DNA from: an uncultured archaeon
GTDB taxonomy: Archaea; Asgardarchaeota; Thorarchaeia; Thorarchaeales; Thorarchaeaceae
NCBI GenBank assembly: GCA_964558645.1
Contig: CAZLEV010000006.1
Location: 96,001-160,000, forward strand
DNA length: 64,000 bases
Reading direction: 5' to 3'
The position numbers and the translations under genes were made by a program. Positions 42 to 6,206 of this stretch are shown one piece after another; positions within the stretch are counted from its first letter, which is position 1; each line of letters starts with the position of its first letter. The notes below the pieces were generated by a model. That model did no database searches. It was not told the DNA's origin and saw only the letters and a list, made by a program, of their open reading frames with translations.

Positions 42-659
42 CTATAGCCATTCGATCTGGTCAAGGTATGGGCTGAGGCCGCGTGAAACCTTGGTCTTTG
101 TCTTGAATTTGGTGTCTGCAGTGAGTTTGATGTCTGGGTCCAAGTCGAGCGTTCTGAGATTCGAGCAACGGAATAGTGCCGAAACATCCATTTCGCTTAT
201 GTCGTTCTTGGTTAGGGTCAACGTACGGAGTTTTCGGCAATTCTTTAGGGGTGAAAGGTCAATGTTACTCAGCCTGTTTTCGTAGAGGTGCAGAGACCTG
301 AGATTCTTACAGGCAGACAGCGGCTTCAAGTCTATTTCTCTGAGTCGATTGAAGGAGAGTCCTAAGTATGTGAGGTCAGGACATGCTCTCAGAGGTCCCA
401 GGTCAATTGCAATGAGCTCGTTTCCGCCCAGAGAGAGCTCCACCAGTGATGGGCACTGCTCGAGAACAGAGAGGTCGATACTCTCAAGCTCATTCCCGGA
501 CAGGGTGAGAACCTCGAGATTCGGAAACTCTTCTAGCGGCGACAGGTCAGTCGAACCAATCCGTTTGTCATTCAAGTCAACTACAGTAGTGCTTGGGTCG
601 AATCGTTCGACCACCTTTCCACCCTTTTTGGTTTCGCTCCAGATAGTAATCTCGTCCAT
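42..659 (-). CDS. Leucine-rich repeat protein
   Basis: Tandem 22-aa repeats LxxLxLSxNxLxxIDLxPLxxC; start probably MDEIT at 659 (ORF open to 719). Confidence 0.9.
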   Translation of the reverse strand: MDEITIWSETKKGGKVVERFDPSTTVVDLNDKRIGSTDLSPLEEFPNLEVLTLSGNELESIDLSVLEQCPSLVELSLGGNELIAIDLGPLRACPDLTYLGLSFNRLREIDLKPLSACKNLRSLHLYENRLSNIDLSPLKNCRKLRTLTLTKNDISEMDVSALFRCSNLRTLDLDPDIKLTADTKFKTKTKVSRGLSPYLDQIEWL

Positions 660-842
660 GTGTGCCATGTCCCGGAGAGTGGTTAGAGCGCCTCCTAATA
701 AAGTGACGGCACCAACCAAGACGATTCCAATGACTCATTACTCAATGGAAGAGCAGATCGATTACTCTATAGCACTTCGTCTACGTCTTTCCTCTCAGCC
801 GGGAGGTGTAATGCGATTCTCAGCTGGACGCTTCTCTGTGGA

Positions 843-1064: not shown

Positions 1065-1189
1065 GTTCAGTCCTCAGTTTCGTTTCGTACTCTGTGTACA
1101 AACACCTATATCAGCTGTTTGGATTTTCAACGACCAATTGGAGTTGGGCTCTCAGAGTTGTGACCGAATGTTTGTATCAAGATAGCAAT

Positions 1190-1198
1190 CTTAATATT
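1190..1198 (+). promoter_or_regulatory. Putative TATA box of tRNA-Asn
   Basis: CTTAATATT about 30 nt upstream of the tRNA 5' end. Confidence 0.45.
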
Positions 1199-1226: not shown

Positions 1227-1422
1227 GCCGCCGTGGCTCAGTCGGTAGTTGTTGTTCCTCTTGAGGAGCAGCAGCTGAAAGCGACAACCCTTTGCACTTC
1301 GCAAGGGTTCGCTCAAGCCTGTTACCTTTCGGTCAGGTGGCCGAGAGCCAGACAGTTGTAGTGCATCACGCTTCGTGATGCGTGACGTATGGTCCCAGGT
1401 TCAAACCCTGGCGGCGGCGCCA
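1227..1422 (+). tRNA. tRNA-Asn(GTT) with four introns (approx. 1249-1279, 1286-1315, 1325-1353, 1360-1389)
   Basis: Acceptor GCCGCCG/CGGCGGC + G73 + CCA; T arm CCAGG-TTCAAAC-CCTGG. Removing four hairpin inserts (31+30+29+30 nt) gives a 76-nt cloverleaf with anticodon loop CTGTTAA. Confidence 0.9.
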
Positions 1423-1607
1423 CGTACATCAGTTCTTTTCAGTCCAATCGGTCTGCATCAGTATCCTGCAATCATGCACAAAGAAAGTGAGCCCACCATT
1501 CCCCTTCAGGGGATCGGCTGAAAGGGCCATCCAAGCGTGTTCTGGTACAGTAGAAGTGTTCCGTGAAGTACGAGGACCAGAACGATAACAGAGAGGAAGA
1601 TGTCAAG

Positions 1608-2393: not shown

Positions 2394-2597
2394 GTGAGTG
2401 TAGCAAAAGTAATCGAGCTTATCGGTCAGTCAGAGAAGAGTTTTGATGATGCTATCGAGAATGCACTGGAGATTGCATCTGAGTCGATCAGAAACATCCA
2501 TGGTCTCGATGTGCTCGATCTGACTGCTGATGTTGAAAATGGGAAGATTGTCAAATACAGAGCAAACGTGAAGGTAGCCTTCCGTTACGAGGAATAA
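2394..2597 (+). CDS. Dodecin family flavin-binding protein
   Basis: 67 aa; KVIELIGQSEKSFDDAIENAL...YRANVKVAF. Confidence 0.9.
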   Translation: MSVAKVIELIGQSEKSFDDAIENALEIASESIRNIHGLDVLDLTADVENGKIVKYRANVKVAFRYEE

Positions 2598-4013: not shown

Positions 4014-6206
4014 TCATGAGGACTTTCGCGCCTCAGTAAGATGATCAAGTATCTTCGTGAAGACCTCTCTCTTGGGGCCTTTAGCCAGTTTGGCAAGGCG
4101 CTCTACTATGAGTTCAGGGGTGCTTCTTGCCAAATATCCAAACCTCGGCGTTCGGTCCACTATCAGCTCAAGTTCCTCGTTCAAACCCTTGGCCTCAATA
4201 CCATCAATCCGAACAGGAACCTGAGTGACCTCCTTTATCTCGCGAGCAAGATGACTACAGATGACTGTTGCACTGTTTGGGTCGTCTTGGAGAATCTCGA
4301 TGAGTCCTGCAATCACATTGGCCGCACTGCCTGGTTCTGTGATAGCCTCTACCTCGTCGAAGAGTACTAGTTTTGACTTATCCGATACTACAATGTCAGC
4401 AAATTGCTCCAACGTTGTTTCAAAGGCTCCTGCATTCACCATTCCCTTACTCTTGTAGAAGAAGAAGAGTTCCTCAAAGACTCTCAGATGTACTTCTTCA
4501 GCAGGGACAGGGAGGCCGGTCTGTGCCATAGTGACTATCTGTGCAAGTGTCTGAATCGTGGTGGTCTTGCCACCGCTATTTGCTCCCGAGAGGATCGCAC
4601 AGTTCTCACCATTGGTACCCTCAGGTCGAATGGGTGTGACTCCAATGGCATAGTCGATAGGCTGAACCGGGCCATGTTTGCCCTTCAGCATGCTCTCAAC
4701 TAGAAAGAGATTACGCGCGTTCTTGACACCTACGCCTGAGTACCCCAATGAGATGTCAGGAATATGAAGATCATATTCTCTGGCAAACGAACCAACTGCT
4801 AGGAACAGGTCGAACTCAAGCAGCGTCTGGACCGCCTCGTCAACCGGATCTTTCAGCTGGTCCAGCTCCCCCGCTATTTTCTTGATGATTCTGAACTGTT
4901 TCTCAGCAAAGAGACGCCTGAGGCGGTCTTCTAGCTCGTTGATTCGGGTAGCAACCATCTGGACAGGAAGTGAAATCTCTTCGCTGATTATGCCCGTTAC
5001 CCAGTCCGCCTCACGAGGTGTGAGCCCGAGCATATTGACTAGGCGATCTTCTGCCTCTTGGATTGTGGTCGTGAAAGTTTCCACTATCTCTGCAGGCAGC
5101 ATGTTTCTCAGTGCCCCAGCGTCTGCACCATCCATATCAGCAGACTGCAAAATACTGATAATCTGTTGCCCTCCAAGCGTCACTTCGCTACTAGATATTC
5201 TTGAGTTTATCTCATCATTTAACCAAGCTTCAATCTCTGCGATAGCGGTTGGGAATGCTTTTACTGACTTCCTAAATCGATCAAGCTCACTATTGACCCC
5301 CATAGCTATGGAACCGGATTCTTCTATGAAGTCCAGTAGCTCACTGACCTTTGTCAGACTTTCAAAGTCTATGCCATCTATGAATTGCTGGACTGTCGTG
5401 TTCGAAGGAATACTCTTGAAGATCTTGGCTATCTCACAGGCAGCATCAATGACACGATAATTCTTGGAGTAGAAACTCACTGTCTGCTCGGGGATGACAT
5501 CGCCTACCTTCCAGTCCTTGCCAAGGATTTCAACATTCTCCATTAAATCCAGCGAGTCATCATATACTCCATATGGAGAGATATACATCACAAGATCGTA
5601 ACCCTGGGCGTAATCAGTTGCACTCTCGTCTTCGGACAGAATATAGACTGGACACCATTTGTCAACTTTCTCCTCCACCAGTCTATCAAATGTCTTCTCA
5701 TCATTGGTGAGGACAACTCGGCCATCCAAGCGTTGGTGCTGTATCCTCTTGAAGAGAGCTCGCACTTGACCCAAGTTCTTTCGAAGCTGTGCTCCTTGGT
5801 CCTCCGTCAATCCTTGGGCCATCTCTGATGCATCAGCGAAATACGCTTGACGTTCTCGAATCACGTCGATCTTGTCGGGGGGGAGTGGGAAGTACAAGAC
5901 AAGCTTGTCCTTAGCATAAGTCGTGTTGGTATATCCCCGGATAATGTCCAGGATAGACTCGAAGATTCTTCGGATGTCGTGGCTTCGCATAATGGTATAC
6001 GAGTTGGCGCCAAACTCGTGTTCAAAGGCACCCTTCACAATATTGACAGCTTGACGGTCACCTATTCCCGGTACGGCAGCTACAAGGTCAACACGAGAGT
6101 CCATAATGACCTTGAGTGCAACGGCCTCATTTCCGAAGTGCTCTATGAGAGCTTGCTTCATCTTCTTGCCCACACCAGGAATGTCAGATAATCTAGATAT
6201 ACTCAC
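4014..6206 (-). CDS. Archaeal MutS-family ATPase (N-terminal HhH, MutS domain V)
   Basis: IPGVG/VPGIG HhH motifs; Walker A SGANSGGKT; GAFETTL; LFDE..AITEPG; SHL. Confidence 0.85.
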   Translation of the reverse strand: MSISRLSDIPGVGKKMKQALIEHFGNEAVALKVIMDSRVDLVAAVPGIGDRQAVNIVKGAFEHEFGANSYTIMRSHDIRRIFESILDIIRGYTNTTYAKDKLVLYFPLPPDKIDVIRERQAYFADASEMAQGLTEDQGAQLRKNLGQVRALFKRIQHQRLDGRVVLTNDEKTFDRLVEEKVDKWCPVYILSEDESATDYAQGYDLVMYISPYGVYDDSLDLMENVEILGKDWKVGDVIPEQTVSFYSKNYRVIDAACEIAKIFKSIPSNTTVQQFIDGIDFESLTKVSELLDFIEESGSIAMGVNSELDRFRKSVKAFPTAIAEIEAWLNDEINSRISSSEVTLGGQQIISILQSADMDGADAGALRNMLPAEIVETFTTTIQEAEDRLVNMLGLTPREADWVTGIISEEISLPVQMVATRINELEDRLRRLFAEKQFRIIKKIAGELDQLKDPVDEAVQTLLEFDLFLAVGSFAREYDLHIPDISLGYSGVGVKNARNLFLVESMLKGKHGPVQPIDYAIGVTPIRPEGTNGENCAILSGANSGGKTTTIQTLAQIVTMAQTGLPVPAEEVHLRVFEELFFFYKSKGMVNAGAFETTLEQFADIVVSDKSKLVLFDEVEAITEPGSAANVIAGLIEILQDDPNSATVICSHLAREIKEVTQVPVRIDGIEAKGLNEELELIVDRTPRFGYLARSTPELIVERLAKLAKGPKREVFTKILDHLTEARKSS

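Follow-up and report, generated by a model that had tools for sequence, protein, structure and literature searches.

The stretch analysed here (hereafter the window; 64,000 nt of an uncultured member of the Thorarchaeaceae) carries, at positions 1227–1422, a real tRNA-Asn(GTT) gene made up of five exons and four introns of 29–31 nt (31, 30, 29 and 30 nt for introns 1 to 4 respectively), which sits between two minus-strand protein genes. Removal of 1249–1279, 1286–1315, 1325–1353 and 1360–1389 leaves a 76-nt product with a GTT anticodon, G73 and an encoded CCA that ARAGORN calls as tRNA-Asn(gtt) with a full cloverleaf, and the spliced tRNA set out in a preliminary description of this DNA is thereby reproduced. 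Three of the four introns are non-canonical in position, 37/38 being the canonical site, and since the five exons are collinear over 196 nt the gene is neither split nor permuted. The features of the locus, with BHB standing for bulge-helix-bulge, are as follows.

1184..1198, plus strand: putative BRE/TATA-like promoter (TATA-like box 1191–1198), 28 nt upstream of the tRNA, recognised by the archaeal consensus
1227..1248, plus strand: exon 1, tRNA positions 1–22, placed from the spliced product, free-placement alignment and MAFFT
1249..1279, plus strand: intron 1, site 22/23, 31 nt, canonical (strict) BHB with 4/4 central pairs, a 10-bp inner and a 2-bp outer helix
1280..1285, plus strand: exon 2, a 6-nt micro-exon, positions 23–28
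1286..1315, plus strand: intron 2, site 28/29, 30 nt, four Watson–Crick central pairs, without outer (exon-side) helix
1316..1324, plus strand: exon 3, positions 29–37, anticodon GTT at 1321–1323
1325..1353, plus strand: intron 3, canonical site 37/38, 29 nt, relaxed, 3/4 central pairs
1354..1359, plus strand: exon 4, a 6-nt micro-exon, positions 38–43
1360..1389, plus strand: intron 4, site 43/44, 30 nt, relaxed, 3/4 central pairs, 10-bp inner helix, no exon-side helix
1390..1422, plus strand: exon 5, positions 44–76, with G73 and the encoded CCA
1433..1439, plus strand: T-rich run seen in the sequence, a possible terminator

The TATA-like box is unchanged in seven aligned orthologues and present upstream of nearly all tRNA-Asn orthologues, and 1184..1198 would act as a promoter judging by the archaeal promoter consensus; T-rich tails likewise lie 3' of most tRNA-Asn orthologues. 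Other genes of the window encode a leucine-rich-repeat protein (42–719, minus strand), a dodecin (2394–2597, plus strand) and a MutS-domain-V protein whose N terminus bears a helix-hairpin-helix (4014–6206, minus strand), none of which showed any connection to tRNA splicing.

As had been anticipated for standard scanners, those run here miss the gene: neither ARAGORN nor Rfam detected its unspliced form, the window yielding tRNA-Lys alone, and neither reported any tRNA-Asn in the 3.63-Mb source genome (G000), in which the tRNA-Asn 5' pattern occurs once. No second tRNA-Asn gene was found in this assembly, whose completeness is 92.8% and contamination 6.3%; a second copy could sit in the unassembled part. 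The present gene fills the place of an asparagine tRNA, which both scanners had failed to detect in this genome.

Exons, junctions and the orthologue family

Because four free deletions could yield a tRNA-like string, an independent test of the gene structure was needed. The spliced product matched intronless orthologues at 74/76 positions (G035, locus L018), 72/76 (G013) and, in two further cases, 69/76, the first two values being counted after removal of one extra D-loop base. An independent assembly from the same genus (G001) carries the same four introns at 94% identity, and a further genome of that genus (G002, locus L003) lacks precisely intron 1. MAFFT, which is blind to splice motifs, opened gaps at the junctions originally proposed, with a one-base A/A ambiguity at intron 2, and the boundaries obtained by free-placement spliced alignment agree with those of MAFFT. 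The preliminary description had allowed the junctions of introns 2 and 4 to shift by 1–3 nt. Any slide of introns 1, 3 or 4 alters the product, whereas for intron 2 the sequence permits a 1-nt slide (A/A); four Watson–Crick central pairs form at 28/29 alone, and intron 2 can be fixed there because of this pairing register and because the corresponding G002 intron begins with T, which forbids the slide. The coordinates, isotype and four intron positions first put forward all hold.

A search of 60 relatives recovered the locus in 31 of the 36 genomes of the family, showing it to be conserved. Ten of the 12 named records with an orthologous gene are Candidatus Thorarchaeota, and two of the 12 (L032 and L033) are identical to same-genus genes, which places the host in the Thorarchaeia (Asgard archaea). 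A class-wide pattern search of 87 genomes, together with retrieval, gave 62 distinct complete tRNA-Asn genes, all of which splice to tRNA-Asn and which between them use six fixed intron sites (22/23, 28/29, 37/38, 43/44, 50/51 and 59/60) in 21 presence patterns. The genes contain none (4 genes), one (7), two (17), three (16), four (15) or five (3) introns, with a mean of 2.65. Exon invariance is partly built into this parse, which used fixed exon anchors; free-placement alignment returned the same six sites, with placement unstable in the T-loop only. The interrupted architecture recurs in 15 genera, mostly as the sole full copy retrieved. No intron requires another: 22/23, 28/29 and 37/38 each occur as the sole intron of some genes, and 43/44 occurs in genes that lack 37/38. 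The three five-intron genes (G031, locus L005; G036, loci L006/L040, record RDOC01000003.1; G078, locus L065) are 221–228 nt long and equal the highest count that we found reported for Asgard tRNAs. With a near-invariant tRNA body, six sites and 0 to 5 introns, the family is a compact test set. Among the 62 genes, which are relatives and not independent samples, none has introns at both 50/51 and 59/60 (0 vs 5.6 expected), and introns at 22/23 and 28/29 co-occur (17 vs 9.3 expected); shared ancestry may explain both.

Splice motifs, enzymes and proposed processing

Scored for a 4-bp central helix (exon −6..−3 with intron −6..−3) and 3-nt bulges, introns 1–4 show 4/4, 4/4, 3/4 and 3/4 central pairs respectively. 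Intron 1 alone has the strict motif with both flanking helices, introns 3 and 4 containing one central mismatch each and introns 2 and 4 lacking the exon-side helix. Membership of the strict class alone is thereby excluded, relaxed motifs being a known class of substrates of the splicing endonuclease EndA (PMC6379350). Central pairing was then compared between registers over the distinct orthologue introns (23 at 22/23, 24 at 28/29 and 19 at 43/44). The BHB register scored above the slid registers at all six sites, whilst the intron sequences diverge, the values in the BHB register and in the best slid register being 0.90/0.48 at 22/23, 0.98/0.61 at 28/29, 0.77/0.68 at 37/38, 0.82/0.53 at 43/44, 1.00/0.57 at 50/51 and 0.84/0.61 at 59/60 (full slid ranges of 0.11–0.48 at 22/23 and 0.09–0.61 at 28/29). 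The peak at 37/38, where most orthologues retain the central mismatch, is modest, its competitor lying at −4; the inner helix at this site reaches 0.94 in register vs ~0.5 when slid, and that at 43/44 reaches 0.96 in register (19 introns). At 22/23, exon base 17 and intron base −3 form C-G in seven introns, A-T in six and T-A in two, with a mismatch in eight, so that the partner follows in 15/23; introns at this site average 43% mutual identity, and structure is therefore kept while sequence drifts. The proposal that EndA recognises BHB motifs here is thus supported by the central-helix register in the orthologues, as well as by the EndA genes described below.

Relaxed motifs alone do not define introns: when a greedy picker was given motifs only, its parses made no sense for most genes, and a time-limited search parsed tRNA-Asn wrongly. 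In ViennaRNA sampling of the 16 splicing intermediates, the BHB register was hit exactly in ≤15% of cases for intron 2 and ≤2% for the other introns, so that this model, which ignores enzyme binding and tertiary structure, does not predict the motifs as the ground state; the sampling gave no splicing order beyond a hint that intron 3 adopts its expected fold after intron 2 is removed.

The source genome encodes two EndA paralogues. The alpha protein (C4; 188 aa) gave a best match to solved splicing endonucleases with an E value of 1.4e-42, and the alignment includes the loop that precedes the active site, the lysine in that loop and the Tyr/His/Lys triad; the best-matching solved entries we take to be those of the Aeropyrum enzyme. 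The second paralogue (C20) lacks the histidine and reads as a structural (beta) subunit. As RtcB is also encoded, the genome combines a broad-specificity EndA (an alpha subunit with loop and lysine, plus a beta subunit) with an RNA ligase. The ability of EndA to cut relaxed motifs comes from the loop and lysine (PMC6379350), and both are carried by Asgard EndAs (PMC5829648).

We consider it very probable that this is a functional, essential tRNA-Asn(GUU) gene with its own TATA promoter, spliced by a two-subunit EndA and RtcB. Its structure, junctions, conservation, motif register and enzyme complement being as observed above, we infer transcription, cleavage and ligation, and their order, as follows. 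Transcription from the gene's own TATA promoter would yield a precursor with a length of at least 196 nt; the two-subunit EndA, whose catalytic subunit has a crenarchaeal-type specificity loop, would cut every intron, whether its bulge-helix-bulge is strict or relaxed; and RtcB would ligate the exons into the 76-nt tRNA. Exon 2 (positions 23–28) serves two motifs, contributing the 3' bulge and outer helix to intron 1 and the central helix and 5' bulge to intron 2; exon 4 (38–43) likewise contributes the outer helix to intron 3 and the central helix to intron 4. Because each 6-nt exon is needed by both of its neighbours, introns 1 and 2, and likewise introns 3 and 4, cannot both fold fully at the same time. 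Removal is probably stepwise, with refolding between cuts, a pattern already described for archaeal introns that lie close together, of which one must leave before the next motif forms (PMC8450103), and the 37/38 intron would tend to leave late by analogy with Cyanidioschyzon merolae.

Three other explanations were weighed. That the locus is a pseudogene loaded with hairpin insertions, the working tRNA-Asn lying in the unassembled part of the genome, draws on the incompleteness of the assembly and on the imperfect motifs (two of the four with a central mismatch, two without outer helix), yet the exons are near-identical to those of intronless orthologues while the introns diverge, promoter and CCA are intact, and the same architecture is found across 15 genera, where it is mostly the only full copy; we judge this explanation most improbable. 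Nor is it at all likely that processing takes fewer steps and gives a different mature tRNA, for example by excision of introns 3 and 4 together with their 6-nt exon as one 60-nt piece. A blind profile search trained on the intronless tRNAs of G000 did choose this merger and still called the product as Asn, but that product breaks the anticodon stem and departs from the intronless orthologues, the 6-nt exon is retained between 37/38 and 43/44, and the two introns occur separately (37/38 without 43/44 in 34 genes, 43/44 without 37/38 in five). An assembly artefact or chimera, which a metagenome-assembled genome with 6.3% contamination might lead one to suspect, can be practically dismissed, being refuted by the independent G001 assembly with its same four introns.

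Possible intron movement and comparison with known systems

Introns at 43/44, a class that includes intron 4 of the window, and those at 50/51, found in relatives only, share 67% mean identity (maximum 83%), compared with 71% and 79% within the two classes and 19–45% for the other site pairs tested. This likeness is not forced by the central helix, because the hairpin alone still gives 65% vs 16–39%. Two genes hold introns at both sites, which lie 7 nt apart, and the exon segments of both sites can pair with one and the same 3' end. The two classes look like copies of one another, and represent a candidate for an intron move within one gene. Such a move bears on how introns arrive, the open question in the field, and we lean slightly towards viewing the tRNA-Asn gene of Thorarchaeia as an intron hotspot that records site-to-site copying within the same gene (43/44 and 50/51). 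Copying between isotypes was sought in G000, where the best match of the Asn introns to other tRNA introns was 50% and the best pair overall 60%; introns near-identical across the tRNA types of one genome, the transposed type of Thermoproteales, were thus not seen there.

G027 (four introns) and G035 (none), of the same genus, have 47 of the last 50 promoter-side bases in common (by eye), and the sequence of the 37/38 intron is identical in the window, G001, G002 and, in another genus, G027. The simplest reading, an informal one taken from a single event, would be a loss of several old introns in the line of G035 and G013; they may have gone together, through recombination with a copy that was spliced or intronless. 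With the near-identical G027 and G035 loci, tRNA-Asn would, if it is such a hotspot, be a natural series for testing how Asgard tRNA introns arrive and leave.

Relatives, mostly of genera g6 and g7, also contain extra copies of the tRNA-Asn promoter with the first 16–22 tRNA bases only (L098:6629-, L099:1545+, L100:10525- and 12311-, L101:9614+ and 12606-, L038:163+, and further copies in L102, L103, L104, L105, L106 and L107). They are separated from the intact gene by 3–11 kb and in many cases form an inverted repeat with it, with unannotated genes of 670–810 aa and a HerA-like ATPase gene in between. The D-loop, which adjoins the site of the 22/23 intron, seems to be a hotspot of recombination. 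A PF00589 integrase was not found in four genomes (themselves incomplete) with partial copies, and no partial promoter-plus-5' copy was present in G000.

By hand count, G000 has ~41 introns in 48 tRNA genes (~0.85 per gene), with ~29/48 genes interrupted and Asn holding the most. A Poisson distribution at ~0.85 per gene, itself a hand-counted input, expects 0.54 four-intron genes among 48, and four introns were not taken as an outlier. Judged on this one genome, the genome-wide intron load of Thorarchaeia is only moderate. Of the 35 G000 introns extracted, 26 measure 29–32 nt despite their unrelated sequences, and nearly all Asn introns of relatives fall in the same range, as if a length rule applied. 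Other interrupted tRNA genes of G000 include the following.

C2:420049-420214, plus strand: tRNA-Gly(GCC), three non-canonical introns
C20:7643-7807, minus strand: elongator tRNA-Met
C10:36207-36372, plus strand: tRNA-Trp

The latter two each have an anticodon-loop insert of ~58–59 nt, which may be two nested introns, plus one of 30 nt. Elsewhere in G000 are two related 80–81-nt elements with an acceptor-like stem and CCA end and no tRNA core (C4:126620-126699 and C5:221764-221844, both minus strand), a tRNA-Phe present as a partial tandem copy and, after it, a copy that contains a run of N (C2:409119-409500, plus strand), possibly an assembly artefact, and, outside the window, an EF-1alpha-like gene (C6 ~187,350, minus strand) with a short in-frame hairpin insert that contains a stop codon and is shaped like a tRNA intron.

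With an Asgard host, at least two introns and several non-canonical sites, the gene belongs with the heavily interrupted Asgard tRNA genes. The cautious suggestion in the preliminary description that four introns might be unprecedented did not stand: four-intron tRNAs are predicted in Freyarchaeia (Ile2-CAT, Arg-TCT, Leu-GAG) and Atabeyarchaeia-2 (Trp-CCA; PMC11291895 Supplementary Data 4), and the main text of the census of Goswami, Ghosh and Sinha (bioRxiv 10.64898/2026.10.13.758758) gives up to five introns per Asgard tRNA gene, with ~0.9 per gene in other Asgard families. The present data extend four- and five-intron genes to Thorarchaeia. Atabeyarchaeia and Freyarchaeia (Valentin-Alvarado 2024, PMC11291895) similarly have several short introns at non-canonical sites, described computationally only, but are a different class in which tRNA-Asn genes have two introns, and 92–95% of their tRNA genes are interrupted vs ~29/48 in G000. 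The census, which is limited to genes detected by tRNAscan-SE, agrees with G000 in the lack of cross-isotype copies; its main text does not name Thorarchaeia, directs its test of copying at different tRNA types, and states that splicing has yet to be demonstrated for any newly identified Asgard insert and that the arrival route is open. Thermoproteales (Sugahara 2008; Fujishima 2010; via PMC8450103, PMC4090602) share BHB/relaxed, non-canonical, closely spaced introns and a two-subunit EndA with loop. The parallel previously drawn with their up to three introns is right as to number, three being the maximum per archaeal tRNA given in reviews (among them PMC8450103), but not as to host, which is Asgard; moreover, their introns are common to several isotypes, whereas here no match to other G000 tRNA introns exceeds 50%. 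In the tRNA-Ile of Cyanidioschyzon merolae (PMC3728597) stepwise removal with 37/38 last was seen by RT-PCR, and this is the model for the order proposed here; that gene is, however, eukaryotic, with three introns and a different enzyme. Set against these systems, what this analysis adds is the series of 62 orthologues at six sites and the likeness of the 43/44 and 50/51 introns, which may be new, and the value of the locus rests on that series and not on the number four.
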